A stretch of DNA of 54,074 bases from a virus, in the IMG/VR virus record IMGVR_UViG_3300009783_000001, one strand, 5' to 3'. Below the pieces are notes generated by a model. That model searched no databases. It saw only the letters and a program-made list of their open reading frames with translations, and was not told where the DNA came from. Positions within the stretch are counted from its first letter, which is position 1. Every line of letters begins with the position of its first letter. The translations under genes were made by a program, and so were the position numbers. Positions 1,347-54,074 of this stretch are shown here, piece after piece.

Positions 1347-1961
1347 ATGCTCGTCGCCGACACCGCAACCCCCCAGATCTTCGACATGACGCAGGTGATC
1401 GCACCTTCCAAGTCGAAGGCTGGTCGGCGTCATCCGGACCACCCCGACCTGAGCATGAACAAGAAGGCGATTCGCAACCGCACTCGCCGACGGGGCCGGA
1501 TCACGACCAAGGAGTTCGAGGAGCTCTATCGGCCGATCGAAGAGTGGGACGAGGAAGAGCTCGCTCGAGGTCGACCCCGTGCGAAGGACGGAACCTTCCG
1601 GGGTACGGCGCCGAAGTGGCTCACCCGGGAAGTCCACGAGACTGCCATGGCACGGTTCAAGGAGATCGTGCAGGGCAAGCTGCGTGAAGAGGGCATCACC
1701 GCCCTGAGCGTCATCCACTCCATCCTCGCCGATGAGACGCTGGATGATCGAGGCAAGCCGGTCGTTCCCGCCTCGACGAAGCTGGATGCGTCGAAGTGGC
1801 TCATCGAACAGGTGGTGGGCAAGCCCAAGCAGACCACGGAGACTGACATCAGCGTCAAGCTCCAGGCCGTGCTGGCTCACGCCATGGTGGGAGGCGATGC
1901 CGCTCCCTCGCAGCTCGAGCATGCGGTGTGGGAGATCGACTCGACCGAGGACGACGAATGA
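1347..1961 (+). CDS. terS: terminase small subunit (putative)
   Basis: 204 aa with a basic N-terminal segment (RNRTRRRGR). C-terminal KLDASKWLIEQVVGKPKQ motif resembles small-terminase families. Sits in the packaging module. Confidence 0.6.
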   Translation: MLVADTATPQIFDMTQVIAPSKSKAGRRHPDHPDLSMNKKAIRNRTRRRGRITTKEFEELYRPIEEWDEEELARGRPRAKDGTFRGTAPKWLTREVHETAMARFKEIVQGKLREEGITALSVIHSILADETLDDRGKPVVPASTKLDASKWLIEQVVGKPKQTTETDISVKLQAVLAHAMVGGDAAPSQLEHAVWEIDSTEDDE

Positions 1962-2404
1962 CTGACTCTGACATCTGCGAGATGTGCCCGCATCCTCGTG
2001 AGGATCACGTACCGCCTCACATCATGCATCCCTTCACCCCGAAGGGCTCTGGCGCATCCCTGCCGACGAAGAAGGACATGCAGCAGGCATCATCATCGGG
2101 CGGCACCCGCTCGCATGAGGGATCGCCAGGGACGCCGCTCATCAAAACCCGTAAGGGCGAAGGGGTCGACCTCGCATTGCGGGTGGCCCTTCTCAAGGCG
2201 GGAATCATCACCCAAGAACAGATCGCTGCGGCAGAGAAGGACATTGAGGCTGGTGGAATCATCTTCATTGCTCCAGGGGGACCAAGCGCTGATCACGTGG
2301 ATCCTGGATCAGGGTCACCTGGAAGCGCCGAGGGAGGCGTGCGGGGTGGCAGTGAAGCTGACGGAGAATCGCCGCCGAGGCTTCCGTTTGCCGAATACGG
2401 CTGA
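1958..2404 (+). CDS. hypothetical protein; 3' end uncertain (may join the JAB frame)
   Basis: ATG 1958 overlaps the terS stop (ATGA). Protein-like up to ...KDIEAGGIIFIAPGG. The last ~40 codons are low-complexity and are the JAB gene read out of frame. Confidence 0.45.
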   Translation: MTDSDICEMCPHPREDHVPPHIMHPFTPKGSGASLPTKKDMQQASSSGGTRSHEGSPGTPLIKTRKGEGVDLALRVALLKAGIITQEQIAAAEKDIEAGGIIFIAPGGPSADHVDPGSGSPGSAEGGVRGGSEADGESPPRLPFAEYG

Positions 2405-2615
2405 CGATCCACACCGCCGCTTCAGCTTCCAGACGAAGGAACTGCACGAGGTCCTGCGGGGCTTCCGACAAGACCAGGTCATCATCTGGCACACCCACCC
2501 GGGTGGCACGGTCGGGCCCAGCGAGGGCGATCTGACCGAGGTCATCGACGGGGTGAGCTACCTCGTGGTGACAATCCCAAGTGGAGAGGCCTCCTGGTAT
2601 GGCAAAACCCAGTAA
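2268..2615 (+). CDS. JAB/MPN (JAMM) metallopeptidase domain protein
   Basis: REACG ... HTHPGGTVGPSEGD gives the complete E...HxHx7SxxD JAMM signature. TTG 2268 is the first possible start in this frame segment. Confidence 0.75.
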   Translation: MLQGDQALITWILDQGHLEAPREACGVAVKLTENRRRGFRLPNTADDPHRRFSFQTKELHEVLRGFRQDQVIIWHTHPGGTVGPSEGDLTEVIDGVSYLVVTIPSGEASWYGKTQ

Positions 2616-2793
2616 CCGACGGGTCAGTGAGTTCGAGGGCCGCCTCGACAAAGACAAGACCATCCCGATCAAGCCTCGTCCAGTGCGACGACCCAGCCAT
2701 CGGCTGCGCATGGGGTATTTGACCGGAGACGACAGTGGACGATCGCCCCGTGACAAGGGTCAAGCCTTCCGAGGCGAAAGGAAACCGGAGTAA
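2599..2793 (+). CDS. small basic hypothetical protein (64 aa)
   Basis: ATG 2599. Its stop overlaps the next ATG (TAATG at 2791-2795). Fills an otherwise empty 180-nt gap. Confidence 0.35.
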   Translation: MAKPSNRRVSEFEGRLDKDKTIPIKPRPVRRPSHRLRMGYLTGDDSGRSPRDKGQAFRGERKPE

Positions 2794-4118
2794 TGGTAAC
2801 AGCACTTCCTACCAACTTCAACACGGGTCAGATCACCGGCCGCTTCGTCGACCTCCAGGGTCGATTCGAGCAGGGCAAGATCACCTTCGCCGCCCGTGCT
2901 CCTCGGTTGGAGTCAGATGGCACCGATACGGTGGTCATCGGGGTTCCGATCGTAGTCGAGCTCATCAACGGCGAGATCAACATCGCGTTGCCCGCCACCG
3001 ATGACCCAGACATCACCCCCACTGGGTTCACGTACCAGGTGACCGAAGACTTCTCGAACGGTTACCTTCGTCAGTACGACATTGATGTGCCGGTTGGTAG
3101 TGTTACCGACCTGAGCGACGTCGTCAGTACTGACCCCTCCACGGGTGAGACGGTCATCAGGACTCCCAGTGATCCTCCCCAGCTGATCGACCTCACCGGG
3201 GAATCTGGGGCTGTTGCCTTGGATCTGAGCACGGGTATCCATGAAGTGGAGCACTCGGTCAGCGCTGTACTCATCCAGTGCGATGACTCGGTCACCTTGA
3301 CCGTCACTCCGCCCTCTGCTCGACAGACGCGGCTCGGTGTGGTTGTTCGGGTGACCGGCGGCGGTGACGTGGTCTTGAAGGTGGCGGGCAACGCTGATGA
3401 GCTCTCGGGTAGCGATGAGGTCTCGGCGTACTTGGAGCCAGTGCCCTCGGGGCTGGAGACTCCGATGGTGTTCGGTCCTCGAGTGAACCCCACCTCCATC
3501 AGCGAAACGATGACCTGGTCGGCGATCGACGCCAAGGGTGATCTCCTGGTTGGCACCGCCAACGACACGGTGGGTCGCAGGTCGGGCCCGACCACCGCAG
3601 GCGAGGTTCTGGTGGGTGACCCCAGCGACCCTACGGGGCTGGGGTGGGCATCTGGTGACCCCCTTGGAGCCTTCACTTGCGCTCCTACCCCAACCCTGTT
3701 GGCGGCCTTGGCCAACCACATGTTCGCAGCTCGCTGGTGGGGTGGCGGAACTTTCACCAAGATCGCCGTGCTCATCGGCACCAGTTCGGGCAACATCTGC
3801 GTAGCCGCTTACAGCTCGATCAACTCGAGTTACCTGGCAATCCCGAATGCTCGCTTGGGTACTTCGGGGTCAATCCCTTGTCCTGCTGGAGGTTGGGCGG
3901 AGATCTCGCTCGGCGGCTCAGTCTCATGGGCAGCCGGAGACTGGGGAGCGGTTGGCTGGGACAATGCCACTGCAACATCCTTTGGTTCTGCGGCTTCAGC
4001 CTCAACCCTGGGAGGACACGGCTTTGCTCGATATCAGGCCTCAGCATTTCCGGCTCCAACCACCCTCTCGCCCGCTGGGTCGGGAGATCGCCAATACCGA
4101 CTCTGGGGGGTCGCATGA
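2793..4118 (+). CDS. tail fibre / receptor-binding-like structural protein (putative)
   Basis: 441 aa. N-terminus NFNTGQITGRFVDLQG...GKITF resembles actinophage minor-tail/fibre N-termini. Gly/Ser/Ala/Trp-rich C-terminal half. Confidence 0.45.
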   Translation: MVTALPTNFNTGQITGRFVDLQGRFEQGKITFAARAPRLESDGTDTVVIGVPIVVELINGEINIALPATDDPDITPTGFTYQVTEDFSNGYLRQYDIDVPVGSVTDLSDVVSTDPSTGETVIRTPSDPPQLIDLTGESGAVALDLSTGIHEVEHSVSAVLIQCDDSVTLTVTPPSARQTRLGVVVRVTGGGDVVLKVAGNADELSGSDEVSAYLEPVPSGLETPMVFGPRVNPTSISETMTWSAIDAKGDLLVGTANDTVGRRSGPTTAGEVLVGDPSDPTGLGWASGDPLGAFTCAPTPTLLAALANHMFAARWWGGGTFTKIAVLIGTSSGNICVAAYSSINSSYLAIPNARLGTSGSIPCPAGGWAEISLGGSVSWAAGDWGAVGWDNATATSFGSAASASTLGGHGFARYQASAFPAPTTLSPAGSGDRQYRLWGVA

Positions 4119-4492
4119 TTCGCATTGTTGACAACGAGGATGAGCGGTACCCGGACTGCGTGCTGATCGAGTGCGTGGATGACCTCAGTGGAGAAATCCT
4201 CTGGAGGTCTTGGGCACCAGAGGACGTTGACCCGGCGATCCGGCTCAACCCCGACTCCTACCCGGTCGTGGATGATGTCCGCACCACGACGGAAACCGAG
4301 ACCATCCACTACCGTGTTCCCACGGTGGCCGAGTTCACCGGTCTGGCAGGGAGCTACCAGGAAGATGCCCATCGTGTCATCGCCACCTACGCTGCGGTCG
4401 TGGAAGCGGTAACGGTGTCCGAGGCCGCCAAGGCAGCACAGGTCGACGAGCAGGTCTTGGTCGACGAGGCCCAGGGCTGGTCCGGGTGGTAG
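4115..4492 (+). CDS. hypothetical protein (125 aa)
   Basis: ATG 4115 overlaps the upstream stop (ATGA). Acidic with coding-like composition. Confidence 0.55.
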   Translation: MIRIVDNEDERYPDCVLIECVDDLSGEILWRSWAPEDVDPAIRLNPDSYPVVDDVRTTTETETIHYRVPTVAEFTGLAGSYQEDAHRVIATYAAVVEAVTVSEAAKAAQVDEQVLVDEAQGWSGW

Positions 4493-5535
4493 CTCCTGGC
4501 CGAGTCGGGCGTATCGTACCAGCCCCGGAAGAACTTCCGGCTGGTTCTCGGTATGCCTCGCCCACCGGAGGCGGTAGCGGCCTGTCGATCGACTCGCCGA
4601 CCACGTTGTCCTTGGCGATCGCTGACGCAACTCCCGGAGCGGTGGTGGTCATCTTGCCGGGCTCGTACACAGGTATTGGAGCCATCAGCAAGACTCTGAC
4701 CATCCGACCCCCGCTGAGCAACAGCGGTTTCTCGGTTGTTCAGTCCTCTGGAACGATCTACCCGGATCGAGGAACCTTCGGTTCTTTGACCCTGGATGGA
4801 GTCAAGGTTACTTCGTTGCTGGGAACTGCGGGAGGTACCGAGTACTGGACCTCGTTGACCCCCTCTCAGGTACCCACGTTTGAGCCCAAGATGGGCGTGC
4901 TGTTCATGCACGGCGCTACCGCCAATGAGTTGCAGCCTGTCCTCTCTTGGCCCTTTGCGATCGGCAACATCACTCGTACCCTGGCTCAAGCCGGTTACTC
5001 AGTGCTTTCGATCTACGGAGGAGGTGACACCTGGGGTAATGCTGCGTGCATGAGCCTCATGTCTGACGGGGTCGAATACCTGAAGAGTCACCTCGGAGCA
5101 AAAGCGGGCAAGGTGGCTTTGATCGGGGGATCCATGGGCGGCTTGGCTGTTGCGAACTGGGCTCGAGCCAACCCCTCCCAGGTTGCGGCCATCGTCGGAC
5201 TTACCCCGGTCTCGGATGTCACTGATATCCACACCAACAATCGAGCCCTCTTGGCGAGCTCCATCAACGGGGCTTATTCAGGTGGGTGGTCTGAAGCTGT
5301 CTACGGCGCTACGCGAAATCCCCATACCTACGCGGGTACTGATCTGGTGGGACTCGCTTACAAGGCCTGGTATGGCGCATCCGACACGACCGTAATCCCC
5401 TCGACCGTTACTGATGTGGCTACCGCTATCGGTGGAACTGCTTCAGCAGTTTCGGTAACGGGCAACCATACCACTGCCTTGAGCAACATCCCGCCAGAGG
5501 ATGTCCTGGCTTTCCTGAACGCGAACGGTACCTGA
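4486..5535 (+). CDS. alpha/beta-hydrolase (esterase/lipase-like) with N-terminal beta-helix-like segment
   Basis: Nucleophile elbow IGGSMGG (GxSxG) preceded by FMHG, with a C-terminal GNH. N-terminus SPTTLSLAIADATPGAVVVILPGSYTG resembles pectate-lyase-fold starts. Confidence 0.7.
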   Translation: MVAPGRVGRIVPAPEELPAGSRYASPTGGGSGLSIDSPTTLSLAIADATPGAVVVILPGSYTGIGAISKTLTIRPPLSNSGFSVVQSSGTIYPDRGTFGSLTLDGVKVTSLLGTAGGTEYWTSLTPSQVPTFEPKMGVLFMHGATANELQPVLSWPFAIGNITRTLAQAGYSVLSIYGGGDTWGNAACMSLMSDGVEYLKSHLGAKAGKVALIGGSMGGLAVANWARANPSQVAAIVGLTPVSDVTDIHTNNRALLASSINGAYSGGWSEAVYGATRNPHTYAGTDLVGLAYKAWYGASDTTVIPSTVTDVATAIGGTASAVSVTGNHTTALSNIPPEDVLAFLNANGT

Positions 5536-6914: not shown

Positions 6915-8455
6915 GCTCTGATGACAACATCTACACGCCCTACGCGAACTTGGTGCCCTTCTTCGTCGAAGAGCCCATGTGGGCGCCAGAGACCGAGCGG
7001 GAAAGGGTCCAATCGTACGGGGTGTACGACGAGCTGTACTGGAACTACCGCAAGGCACTGAAGCTGATGTTGGCCGACGACCGGGATCCGGTTTATCTCC
7101 CGACCCCTCGCACGATCGTCGATAGCACGTCTCATTTCCTCCTCAAGGGCCTCCGTATCGCTCCCAAATCGGGTGAGGGCGAGTCACCCTTCAAGCAGGC
7201 GCTCGACGCGTTCTTCAAGCGTGAGAAGTTCATGTCGAAGTTCCACACCAACAAGCTGGCGGGTGTGCGCCGAGGTGATGCCTACTTCCACCTCACGGCT
7301 GACCCCAACAAGCCCGTTGGTTCCCGGCTCTCCATCAACGGCCTCGATCCTGCGTCGGTCTTCCCGATCTGGGACGACGATGACATCGACAAGCTGCTGG
7401 GCATGGACATCGTCACGCAGTGGGAGGGCGAGGACGGCAAGCCCCGGATCAAGCGGCTCCGGTACATGTACGAGTTCGGCCCGAACGGTCGTATGGTCTG
7501 GATGAGCGAGGGGCTCTACGAGGTCGAGGGCTGGTGGAAGGGCAAGGCCGCCAAGGTCGTTCAGATCTTCATGACCGACACCAAGCTCGACCCTCGCATC
7601 GACACGATCCCCGTCTTCCACTTCAAGAACCTGGATGACGTCGAGAACCCCTTCGGGTCGTCAGAACTGCGAGGCTTCGAGCAGCTCATCCAGAGCATCA
7701 ACCAGAGCGTGACCGACGAAGATGTCGCGTTGGCCCTGGAAGGTCTCGGTGTCTACGCAACCGATGCGCAGCCGCCCGTGAATGAAGCGGGTGAAGAGGA
7801 GCCCTGGATCATCGGCCCGGGTCGGGTGCTCGAGACGCCGGGCGGCACCTTCTTCAAGCGGGTCGAAGGTGTGGGATCGGTCAAGCCCATGCAGGACCAC
7901 ATCCAGATGCTGGCTGATGGGCTCTACGAGGCATCTGCGACATTCCGCCCCTCACAGGTGGATGTGCTGACCGCCGAGTCGGGTGTGGCCATGGCGATCA
8001 AGTTCATGCCGACCCTCGCCAAGATCGAGACCCGTGACCAGGATGGCCTGGACAACCTCGAGCAGCTCTTCTACAACTGGCGCAAATGGCACGATGTCCA
8101 CGAGGGCCAGCTCTTCACGGATGAGCTCGAGATCTCCATCGGTGACAAGCTGCCGGAGTCTCGCAAGGAGAAGCTCAACGAGCTCAACAACATGAAGGAC
8201 CGAGACGTGATCTCGGCGAAGTACTTCAGGGCCGAGATGGCCAAGTTGGGCTACATCTTCCCGAACGACGAGGAGATGGAAGACCAGATCTTCAAGGAGA
8301 AGGAACGCGCCCTGAAGCTGCAGCAGATGTTGGGCAACAACAACAACGCAGCTTTGGCTGGCGGCGACCCCAAGAAGGACACGATCCCGGGCAACGACAA
8401 CGCGAGCAACAACGCGAAGAAGCCCAACGAGTCGGGTGGCACAGAGGCCACTTGA
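6911..8455 (+). CDS. portal protein
   Basis: 514 aa, immediately after terL with start/stop overlap. Size, position and acidic/polar C-terminus are typical of portals. Confidence 0.8.
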   Translation: MSSDDNIYTPYANLVPFFVEEPMWAPETERERVQSYGVYDELYWNYRKALKLMLADDRDPVYLPTPRTIVDSTSHFLLKGLRIAPKSGEGESPFKQALDAFFKREKFMSKFHTNKLAGVRRGDAYFHLTADPNKPVGSRLSINGLDPASVFPIWDDDDIDKLLGMDIVTQWEGEDGKPRIKRLRYMYEFGPNGRMVWMSEGLYEVEGWWKGKAAKVVQIFMTDTKLDPRIDTIPVFHFKNLDDVENPFGSSELRGFEQLIQSINQSVTDEDVALALEGLGVYATDAQPPVNEAGEEEPWIIGPGRVLETPGGTFFKRVEGVGSVKPMQDHIQMLADGLYEASATFRPSQVDVLTAESGVAMAIKFMPTLAKIETRDQDGLDNLEQLFYNWRKWHDVHEGQLFTDELEISIGDKLPESRKEKLNELNNMKDRDVISAKYFRAEMAKLGYIFPNDEEMEDQIFKEKERALKLQQMLGNNNNAALAGGDPKKDTIPGNDNASNNAKKPNESGGTEAT

Positions 8456-9216
8456 GCAACCGAGGCGAGAGGCCTCAGAAAGGACGCGAGATGCGTTCCA
8501 TGCAAGAAGAGCAGGTCCCGTGGTGGAAGCTGTTGGAGGAAGTCCTCGGGTTCGAGGACGACGACGATGGTGACGACGATGACGGGGATGACGACGGCAC
8601 CGATGACGGTGACGACGGTGATGATGACGACGGTGACGACGAGGACGAGAAGTCCAAGCCGAAGCCGCCCGACACCGCCGCCCTGAAGTCGGCACTCCGC
8701 AAGGAGCGTCGTGATCGCAAGGCTGCCGAGAAGCGGGAGAAGGCGAAGGACGCCGAGATCGCCCGCCTCAAGAAGGGCACCACCAAGAAGAAGGAGGAGG
8801 ACGACGCGGAAGCGGAGGCCAAGGACGAGGAGCTCTCGAGCACCAAGACCAAGGCCGAGCGCATCGCTGCGAAGCTCCTCCGGACCGAGGTGGACAAGGA
8901 GATCGCCAAGGCGGCCCGCAAGCTGGGCTTCCTCGACGAGGACGAGGCCGTGGCCTTGGTCAAGCGTTCGGAGATCGACGCTGACCAGGACGAGGACAAC
9001 CCCGAGGAGATCGACATCGACGTCGAGTCCGTGCAGGAGGTCGTCGAGGCCCTGGCGAAGGACAAGCCCCACCTGCTCAAGGCCAAGGATGAGGATGAAG
9101 AGGATGACGGCGAGATGCCCAGTCCGTCCAAGTTCAACGGCAAGAAGAAGGGCAAGAACCGGGCCAACGACGAAGCTCTCGTCAACCGGTACCCGGCGTT
9201 GAAGAACAAGAGCTGA
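8452..9216 (+). CDS. scaffolding protein
   Basis: Highly charged, coiled-coil-like (ALRKERRDRKAAEKREKAKDAEIARLKK) with a poly-Asp/Gly run. Lies between portal and capsid genes. Alternative ATG start at 8491. Confidence 0.7.
   Translation: MSNRGERPQKGREMRSMQEEQVPWWKLLEEVLGFEDDDDGDDDDGDDDGTDDGDDGDDDDGDDEDEKSKPKPPDTAALKSALRKERRDRKAAEKREKAKDAEIARLKKGTTKKKEEDDAEAEAKDEELSSTKTKAERIAAKLLRTEVDKEIAKAARKLGFLDEDEAVALVKRSEIDADQDEDNPEEIDIDVESVQEVVEALAKDKPHLLKAKDEDEEDDGEMPSPSKFNGKKKGKNRANDEALVNRYPALKNKS
8554..8649 (+). repeat. GAY/GGY trinucleotide low-complexity run (poly-Asp/Gly) inside the scaffold gene
   Basis: Encodes EDDDDGDDDDGDDDGTDDGDDGDDDDGDDEDE. Confidence 0.6.
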
Positions 9217-9636: not shown

Positions 9637-10824
9637 ATGACGATCGAACTTCTCGACCGTGACCTCGCACTGCCCGGCTCCAACGCCTACCACGACCAGA
9701 TGGAGCTCCTGCTCTTGCCGGACGAGGTCAAGGGCTACGAGCGGGGCACCAACCAGGAGGCGGACCTCCTCCGCCTGAGGGAGACCGCCGACGGCGCCGA
9801 CCTCAACGCCATGTGGCGGGAGTTCAACCGCGTCGTGGCGATGAACAACGCCGACCGGAGCCGCCTCGTGCAGCTCCTCAGCTACCGGGTGTCCAACGAC
9901 GTCGAGCGCGTCTACTACCCGGTGTCCGAGGACTTCGAGGAGGCCTCGGAGTTCGGCGAGCCGAAGGGCGTGCGGCTCGGCCGTCCGTTCTCCATGGGCT
10001 TCGACTTCAAGTGGTACGACCTGGCCATCCGCTACACGTGGAAGTTCCTGGTCGATGCCACCTCGGAGGAGCTCCGTGCGCTCACCAACGAGGCGCTGGA
10101 GGCGGACAACCGCCTGGTCTTCACCCGGATCATGAAGGCGGTGTTCAACCCGGCCAACCGCACGGCCGAGATCAACGGCGCCGCCTACAACGTCTACGCC
10201 CTGTACAACGGCGACGGCACGGTGCCGCCGCAGTACAAGACCACGACGTTCGACAACACCCACACCCACTACCTCGCCTCCGGCGCTGGCACGGTGGACT
10301 CGGGTGACCTCGACGACATGGAAGAGCACCTCTTCCACCACGGCTACCGCATGACCAACGGCTACCAGCTCGTGCTGCTGGCCAACCGGCAGGAGGCCCA
10401 GGTCATCCGGGGCTTCACGGTGGCCGGCGGCGACGCCTACGACTTCATCCCGAACGGCAACGTCGGGGGCGGGATCCTGCGGGACCCCAAGCAGATCGTG
10501 GGCCAGCCGGGCGGCTCGGGCATCCCGGGCGAGATCGGGACCTACGGCCCGTTCAACGTCATCGAGGAGGAGTACATCCCCGCCGGGTACATGGTGGCCT
10601 TCGCCACCGGAGGCGAGGAGTCCCTCGGGAACATGATCGGCATCCGGGAGCACGCCAACGCGTCGGTCCGTGGTCTGCAGCTCGTCAAGGGCCCGGACAA
10701 CGACTACCCGCTGACGGACTCCTTCTACCGCCACGGTCTCGGGACGGGCATCCGTCACCGGGGCGCAGGCGTCGTCATGAAGATCACCGCCGGCGCGTAC
10801 GCGGCTCCGTCGCAGTACGCCTGA
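9637..10824 (+). CDS. major capsid protein
   Basis: 395 aa in the canonical position after scaffold/decoration genes. Followed by a strong hairpin. Confidence 0.8.
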   Translation: MTIELLDRDLALPGSNAYHDQMELLLLPDEVKGYERGTNQEADLLRLRETADGADLNAMWREFNRVVAMNNADRSRLVQLLSYRVSNDVERVYYPVSEDFEEASEFGEPKGVRLGRPFSMGFDFKWYDLAIRYTWKFLVDATSEELRALTNEALEADNRLVFTRIMKAVFNPANRTAEINGAAYNVYALYNGDGTVPPQYKTTTFDNTHTHYLASGAGTVDSGDLDDMEEHLFHHGYRMTNGYQLVLLANRQEAQVIRGFTVAGGDAYDFIPNGNVGGGILRDPKQIVGQPGGSGIPGEIGTYGPFNVIEEEYIPAGYMVAFATGGEESLGNMIGIREHANASVRGLQLVKGPDNDYPLTDSFYRHGLGTGIRHRGAGVVMKITAGAYAAPSQYA

Positions 10825-10894: not shown

Positions 10895-11335
10895 ATGTCC
10901 AAGCAGCTGGATCTCAGCGATCCGACCAAGCTCAGCGACGAAGACCTGCAGTATGCCCTCAGCCGAGGCAAGCTGCCGCAGGACGTCGTCGATTCCATCA
11001 TGCAGGATCCGGAGCGCCGTGCGGCCGCCACCGGCAACCTGTTCGCCCCCACCCCGATCGAGGACCAGGTGCACACCGGCACCATCAACTCGGCCGGCCT
11101 GACCCAGGCGGAGTACGACCGAGCGGTCGAGCTCCTTCGCCAGGAGCAGGGCGGGGACGACGACGAGGAAGACGAGGGCAGCGGTGAGCCCGAGGACTAC
11201 GACGAGGGATGGAACAACGACGACCGTCGTGCCGAGCTCTCGCGTCGTGGCCTCCCCGTCGAAGGCAACAAGGACGAGCTCATCGCTCGACTCCTCGCCG
11301 ACGACGCGGAGGACGAGGACACCGAGGGGTCCTGA
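10895..11335 (+). CDS. SAP/HeH-motif acidic protein
   Basis: C-terminal RRAELSRRGLPVEGNKDELIARLL matches the SAP/Rho-N helix-extended-helix pattern. Acidic linker. Confidence 0.55.
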   Translation: MSKQLDLSDPTKLSDEDLQYALSRGKLPQDVVDSIMQDPERRAAATGNLFAPTPIEDQVHTGTINSAGLTQAEYDRAVELLRQEQGGDDDEEDEGSGEPEDYDEGWNNDDRRAELSRRGLPVEGNKDELIARLLADDAEDEDTEGS

Positions 11336-53590: not shown

Positions 53591-53980
53591 ATGCTGCTGT
53601 CCTACGACCACTGCCTCGACCTCGCCATCCGGGGACCCTGGGGCTCCGAACCCCCGACCACGAAGGAGATCACCGACCGAGCCGACGCGTACTTCAAGGC
53701 TCAGGGCCAGGTCAAGCCTGGGGACCTGAAGCCCATCTCGGACGCCCTCGGCATCGACACCGGCGAGATCCCGCCCGGCCCCGATGTCATCGACGTGGTC
53801 CTCGCCCGGATCGCCGAGATCAAGGAGCGGCTGCAGGGGCGGAACGGCGACAACGCCATCCTCAACTCCGAGGTGGCCGAGCTCACCCGGAAGCTGAGCA
53901 AGACCGAGCTCCGCCTCATCGACCTGACTGCGTGCTTGTGCCCGAAGTTCGCCCGCGCTGACCGAGGGGACCGGGCATGA
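53591..53980 (+). CDS. hypothetical protein (129 aa), first gene of the late operon
   Basis: ATG with an AAAGGAG RBS. Its 3' end runs into the terminal repeat and is ATGA-coupled to the ORF annotated at 26-235. Confidence 0.55.
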   Translation: MLLSYDHCLDLAIRGPWGSEPPTTKEITDRADAYFKAQGQVKPGDLKPISDALGIDTGEIPPGPDVIDVVLARIAEIKERLQGRNGDNAILNSEVAELTRKLSKTELRLIDLTACLCPKFARADRGDRA

Positions 53981-54074
53981 GCGCCGCAGACCGCACCATC
54001 CAGCCGATGCGCGAGCGTCCGGGCCGACCTGTCGCCTCCGGCTTCACGCTGCTGCCGCCCGCCGAGCAAGAACG
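53952..54074. repeat. terminal direct repeat, right copy (identical to 1-123)
   Basis: Same 123-nt string as 1-123. Could be an assembly overlap of a circular or circularly permuted genome, or a true DTR. Confidence 0.95.

Follow-up and report, generated by a model that had tools for sequence, protein, structure and literature searches.

A gene for a JAB-domain protein lies close behind the small terminase gene (terS) in an IMG/VR virus genome. This arrangement raises the question of what a peptidase of this type would act on in a packaging module, and whether it is made as a protein of its own or as a fusion with the gene that separates it from terS. The window, by which we mean the whole stretch of 54,074 nucleotides that was analyzed, is one complete phage genome, circularly assembled with an exact terminal repeat of 123 nucleotides (1-123 and 53952-54074). 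Its capsid protein is of the Patience type (E 9e-88 to 8giu), and the phage is a relative of the Patience-like actinophages. Among the sequencing runs listed as containing it, the best match is an activated-sludge metagenome, from which it may come, and there is no RNA run. The features of the locus are as follows.

1347..1961, + strand: terS (small terminase), first gene of a module composed of terS, a CxxC protein and JAB.
1958..2404, + strand: gene U, the CxxC protein of 148 amino acids, separate from JAB.
2253..2615 (GTG start, 120 aa) or from TTG 2268 (115 aa), + strand: JAB, a predicted stand-alone JAB/JAMM (MPN+) zinc peptidase.
2490..2531, + strand: JAMM metal-binding motif H-x-H-x7-S-x2-D, with the catalytic Glu at 2334-2336.
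2276..2280, + strand: G5 run, real sequence, with no conserved slip site.

The terS gene matches PHROG 10899, terminase small subunit (E 3.5e-4), and its product is 56% identical to Huwbert gp25, annotated as "terminase small subunit". The neighbors of JAB in the window are terS, U and variable accessory genes. An open reading frame of 64 codons (2599-2793) overlaps the end of JAB and is also called in the relatives L004 and L010; it shows third-position variation in other sequencing runs and gave no NCBIfam match. The accessory block between JAB and terL (2793-5535) includes a tail-fiber-like N terminus and an alpha/beta hydrolase, and is swapped for other genes in L002 and L005.

The JAB product matches the Pfam family Prok-JAB (PF14464) with an E value of 1.6e-9 and 38 bits, against a curated cut-off of 25. 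The five JAMM residues are present as E (2334), H (2490), H (2496), S (2520) and D (2529). Across 128 homologues, the glutamate, both histidines and the aspartate are invariant and the serine is conserved in at least 90%. The AF2 model of the protein started from TTG 2268 has a pLDDT of 95.5, and a Foldseek search with it returned Pyrococcus JAMM1 (PfJAMM1, 5ld9) as the best match, with a TM score of 0.67 to 0.69. The complete JAMM domain near terS that the sequence-only reading described, and for which it called for such a fold search, is confirmed by the family cut-off and the residues, and the closest fold is that of an archaeal peptidase. JAB is a stand-alone JAMM gene with an intact site, belonging to the zinc peptidases of the ubiquitin-protease type, with activity predicted from sequence and model. 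Among the best 149 representatives of the family, the median length is 123 aa and a CxxC N terminus was seen in 0/149. Scans of IMG/VR with JAB alone and with terS alone as single proteins gave no matches.

The same reading held that a free JAB beside terS fits neither of the contexts known for such proteins. This is not supported, given that free JAB genes are commonplace in the head and packaging modules of Patience-like actinophages. The records of 89 actinophages contain JAB homologues, which are labeled "metalloprotease" or "tail protein" and mostly lie between portal and scaffold, and a stand-alone JAB was found in the head or terS module of all 12 cultured Patience-like phages examined. 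Among these genes, Patience gp19 ("Protease"), Adjutor gp11, Send513 gp11, Madi gp8 and Konstantine gp16, together with the unannotated Triscuit gp26 and Shrew gp36, resemble the JAB of the window, being stand-alone, of 110 to 145 aa and located in the head/packaging module, with about 31 to 33% identity. The database labels name no substrate and often read "tail protein". In Triscuit (gp24-26) and Shrew (gp34-36), both of them cultured, the order is terS-U-JAB as in the window, with three separate genes.

Some further homologues are hidden in the records. Divergent JABs annotated as hypothetical lie just 5' of terS in Wollypog (gp79, L158:4607-5560), where a long insertion separates the Glu from the HxH motif, and in AnnaSerena and Ajin (gp3, L040:776-1204 and L041:706-1221). 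In Micrococcus phage Kurnik, the JAB (L038:6944-7280) is intact, and the record annotates another frame (6975-7250) across it.

Candidate substrates were found among the proteins that build the head. In the window phage, the scaffolding and capsid proteins share an N-terminal motif, hydrophobic-x-G-X↓acidic, where the arrow marks the end of a predicted leader.

8491..8553, + strand: proposed substrate, the predicted leader (21 aa) of the scaffolding protein encoded at 8491-9216; it ends V-L-G-F, and an acidic tract follows.
9637..9738, + strand: predicted 34-aa leader of the capsid protein, placed from the motif of relatives and the Patience and Adjutor capsid models; proposed substrate.

The motif reads V-L-G-F↓E at residues 18-22 of the scaffold and V-K-G-Y↓E at residues 31-35 of the capsid protein, the leaders ending G-F and G-Y and not G-G. 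Close relatives all have the Gly, nearly always followed by Phe or Tyr. A SAP-domain protein (10895-11335, Pfam E 5.7e-7) is encoded immediately 3' of the capsid gene, and L005 has one too.

Published data on cultured relatives bear on these leaders. Mass-spectrometry peptides of the Patience scaffold (gp21) begin at residue 35, after a Gly, a start that neither trypsin nor initiation accounts for (PMC4324244), and the sequence at this point is L-P-I-F-G-G↓T, placing the cut in the scaffold after I-F-G-G. The cryo-EM model of the Patience capsid begins at Thr20 (PMC11965321), and the P-I-F-G-G that precedes it is identical to the scaffold site. Pope 2014 gave a different position for the cut in the Patience capsid, 82/83 (PMC4324244). 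In Adjutor, L-S-G-H↓D occurs on both scaffold and capsid, and the capsid model begins at Asn28, one residue beyond this motif. Missing N-terminal density in such models can be disorder instead of cleavage. The class of the residue after the Gly agrees between scaffold and capsid in 19/25 dereplicated pairs, against an average of 7.1 and a maximum of 15 in 5000 shuffles, an agreement to be read knowing that kin share both leaders.

The hydrophobic-x-G-G form of the motif corresponds to the ubiquitin-tail pattern read by JAMMs, and leaders ending in A-G-G presumably recall the C terminus of the actinobacterial sulfur carriers ThiS and CysO. Pfam and PDB scans of the leader peptides for likeness to ThiS/CysO or a ubiquitin-like protein (Ubl) were blank, at the low power that peptides of 21 to 27 aa allow. 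Other leader types were seen in JAB-less phages. One, with a D-L-R-x-A-F core, is shared by scaffold and capsid (L077, L081, L082, L086, L093, L096, L112 and L291), and another, G-D-I-E-G-L...F-G-x-x-x-M-M-A, is found on scaffold and/or capsid (L098, L104, L115, L117, L123, L253, L255 and L260). L123 and L087 carry a leader of the G-D-I-E-G-L type on the scaffold and an A-G-G leader on the capsid.

Of the 61 genomes or loci in which the presence of JAB was compared with the leader motif, 43 carry JAB and 18 lack it. The JAB-less genomes are at least 93% complete in 12 cases and 84 to 89% complete in 6, and absence was judged on the full sequence with a broadened profile that detects the divergent Wollypog control. 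G045, G007, G013 and G020 were excluded from scoring as incomplete, and G014 (L131), with a leader of the G-F type and no JAB, as probably chimeric; after its terS (L131:16072-17400) come repeats and unrelated DNA, despite a completeness rating of 100%. The leader of G045 reads I-R-G-A↓E, and a JAB was not found in this genome, which is 77% complete.

The capsid leader A-G-G↓A occurs in 11/18 JAB-less genomes versus 0/43 that carry JAB, and a capsid leader other than Gly-Gly occurs in 30/43 with JAB versus at most 1/18 without; Fisher P values are 8e-8 and 3e-6, respectively, both of which overstate the contrast owing to kinship. The remaining JAB-less genomes have another G-G (2), a different type (4) or no leader (1). 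The last is G001 (86% complete), in which capsid and scaffold are both leaderless and no JAB was found. Triscuit and L075 are JAB-positive with a capsid motif that lacks the Gly. A quick tree of the capsid proteins, in which clades are few, requires 7 changes in the presence of JAB, of which at least 4 are forced. The JAB-positive L170 nests within a JAB-less clade with A-G-G↓A, and the motif has changed there. On the simplest reading, phages without JAB would rely on a host JAMM that keeps the motif pinned, and a private JAB would free it.

These observations point to JAB as a leader-trimming protease of head assembly that probably acts on both the capsid and the scaffolding protein. The enzyme would be made late in infection from the terS-U-JAB unit, and this zinc endopeptidase would recognize the short hydrophobic-x-Gly-X motif as a mimic of the tail of ubiquitin or a sulfur carrier, removing the 21-aa scaffold leader and the 34-aa capsid leader while the head is assembled. 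In relatives without JAB, most of which keep a strict A-G-G, a host JAMM would cut at that site, and phages with a JAB of their own would let the last leader residue drift, to Phe or Tyr in the window phage. The cut in the window phage would fall at G-F↓E or at G↓F-E. Characterized JAMMs favor Gly at the last position. An aromatic residue such as Phe or Tyr there is unusual for a JAMM and would imply either an altered specificity or a displaced cut, perhaps at G↓F.

Known JAMM peptidases provide a chemical precedent. PfJAMM1 and HvJAMM1, Deinococcus DR0402 and the JAB of actinobacterial ThiS/MoaD-cysteine synthase operons (Mec) have the fold and catalytic residues of the window JAB. Prokaryotic JAMMs cleave linear fusions after a Gly of the C-terminal type (PMC8832034), which is the type of cut proposed here. 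Their substrates carry a folded ubiquitin-like domain, whereas the phage leaders are peptides of 20 to 45 aa in which a Ubl fold was undetected in scans of low power. As regards host enzymes, JAB is encoded in actinobacterial sulfur-carrier operons (PMC1779556), and MoaX is cut after Gly-Gly by a mycobacterial protease (PMC4326299).

A parallel for the leaders is found in Staphylococcus phage 80alpha, where the host protease Prp removes a short N-terminal leader common to capsid and scaffold that mimics a host substrate (PMC5744158). The window phage likewise has an N-terminal motif common to both proteins. The two systems differ in that Prp, a host protease, has L27 as its normal substrate and cuts between F and A, whereas the candidate here is a phage-encoded JAMM metalloprotease and the motif is hydrophobic-x-G-X↓acidic, similar to a ubiquitin tail and not F↓A. 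Leader cleavage is dispensable in 80alpha (PMC5744158), so the trimming step may matter little.

At least 13 genomes in which no JAB was detected have leaders, and a phage JAB is thus not required for having one. This also leaves room for JAB to be a head or packaging peptidase with another substrate (MuF, portal, terS, U or minor virion proteins), or a leader-binding chaperone while a host protease cuts. JAB often adjoins MuF-like genes or terS, and Patience gp24 seems to be processed in particles as well (PMC4324244). We nevertheless regard these roles as unlikely, as MuF is absent from the window phage, U is found without JAB, and the restriction of motif drift to JAB-carrying phages would be left unexplained. 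The search between portal and capsid in the complete window genome found neither a MuF gene nor another prohead protease.

The intact JAMM fold and site, with a desampylase as best structural match, would also suit the counter-defense deconjugase suggested in the sequence-only reading, which would free virion or signaling proteins of ubiquitin-like tags attached by the host (Bil-type, CBASS E1-E2), and bacteria do conjugate Ubls to phage proteins (10.1101/2023.09.04.556158). This role is improbable, however. JAB is fixed in the structural module of phages of six host genera (Mycobacterium, Gordonia, Microbacterium, Arthrobacter, Micrococcus and Nocardia), unlike the patchy distribution of counter-defense genes, and its likeness to defense JABs is weak (PADLOC E >= 1e-3). 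It also co-varies with a phage-encoded motif, and a phage-encoded substrate, the capsid and scaffold leaders, fits better. No CBASS Cap3 or Bil-type operon partners (E1/E2, Ubl or CD-NTase) were found among the neighbors of JAB or the open reading frames scanned.

For lambda and T1, the JAB of tail assembly protein K has been proposed to process a phage protein in virion assembly (PMC1779556), and tail-protein labels on the PHROG matches of the window JAB, together with tblastn matches to gpK of T1-like phages at 30 to 34%, could be taken to mean that it is a displaced peptidase of the gpK type, with a ubiquitin-like tail protein as its substrate in tail assembly. It is very improbable that this is so, since gpK carries a fused NlpC/P60 domain, is encoded in the tail-tip cluster next to gpJ and is paired with the Ubl gpI, none of which holds here: the open reading frame stops at 2615 after the JAB domain with NlpC/P60 absent, no gpI-like match was found among the structural genes scanned, which cover part of the small open reading frames, and at none of the loci examined is JAB in a tail module.

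The relation of JAB to the upstream gene was also examined. The sequence-only reading had noted that the open reading frame 1958-2404 and the JAB frame ending at 2615 are offset by +1, with GGGGG at 2276-2280, and these coordinates are correct. It had gone on to propose that a ribosomal slip or a homopolymer error at this run hides a single fused protein, and had taken the last ~40 codons of U for a shadow of JAB in the other frame. The second of these points stands. Pairwise differences among four strains over 2304-2401 are 47 synonymous and 14 nonsynonymous in the JAB frame, versus 3 and 53 in the upstream frame, and at about 2253-2303 the frame under selection changes from that of U to that of JAB, leaving the tail of U unselected thereafter. 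U therefore consists of a conserved core of ~105 aa and ~43 codons without selection that overlap JAB; its orthologues Triscuit gp25 and Shrew gp35 have 98 to 105 aa. The stop of U (2402-2404) lies one codon before that of three other strains, each of which has TGA at the next codon, and without it the frame would continue to 2720. The early stop may be chance, or selection for ending U there.

The core of U has a putative Zn site (C-x2-C...H...H), a linker and a two-helix C-terminal motif, and residues C7, C10, H17 and H24 are invariant across 27 homologues. These homologues were gathered by synteny, as a homologue search with U returned U alone. The structure model of U is weak (pLDDT 67), and no fold match above Z 3.1 was found with it. 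By eye, the helical motif is MshEN-like, without the R-L-G signature.

The offset is not a sequencing error, because contigs from three other runs span the G5 run with no indel and three other strains (L002/L011, L008/L009 and L010) retain it. The G5 run itself is G4A in L008, is absent in L010 and is present in 3/29 loci that have both U and JAB; with 59 G5 and 7 G6 runs in the window, G5 is expected by chance in both genes. Start codons in the JAB frame that had been overlooked, GTG 2253 and TTG 2268, are kept in 4/4 strains. Candidate starts are found at 29/29 loci, with ATG at 15 of them; a start codon inside an 18-codon window is weak evidence taken alone. A +1 slip at the G5 run that yields a U-JAB fusion as the working form is the least credible of the alternatives: the overlap at +1 in 22 of the 29 loci, the lack of a textbook ribosome-binding site at both candidate starts here and the near invariance of 2253-2273 in four strains speak for it, whereas there is no conserved slip sequence, the other 7 loci are at -1 with coupled stop-start and cannot share a +1 slip, in-frame fusions number 0/29 and are absent from the 149 best representatives, long +1 overlaps are the neutral expectation (PMC2542354), and U and JAB are found apart, with U in 6 genomes that lack JAB and, in Madi, a JAB that follows the portal and a terS that is not followed by U. 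A U-JAB fusion through the G5 run is not supported, and the frameshift idea can be dropped. JAB would instead be translated from its own start within the end of U, as an ordinary same-strand overlap.

The JAB family is already known as an annotation, and the role proposed for it in building the head is new relative to the papers searched, among which none was found that credits a JAMM with capsid maturation (most subscription journals lie outside that search). What is added here is that the frameshift is rejected, and that leaders fixed at A-G-G↓A in JAB-less phages contrast with drifted leaders in those that carry JAB. About 160 sequenced actinophage records have a Patience-type capsid; for these the prohead protease has been attributed to MuF or left without an assignment. 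We tentatively propose, at somewhat less than even confidence, that head maturation in Patience-like actinophages relies on a class of protease that has not been described. Its ancestral form would be a host JAMM acting on capsid and scaffold leaders with a sulfur-carrier-like A-G-G, repeatedly replaced by a phage JAMM that co-evolves in specificity with the leader; in the clade of the window phage it would cut after Gly-Phe/Tyr, in a substrate with no ubiquitin fold. If a JAMM has a role of this kind, JAMMs would be an extra metalloprotease class among the known phage maturation proteases, some 90 "metalloprotease/tail protein" genes in the databases would gain a substrate, and these phages would offer a natural series of JAMMs that differ in P1 specificity.
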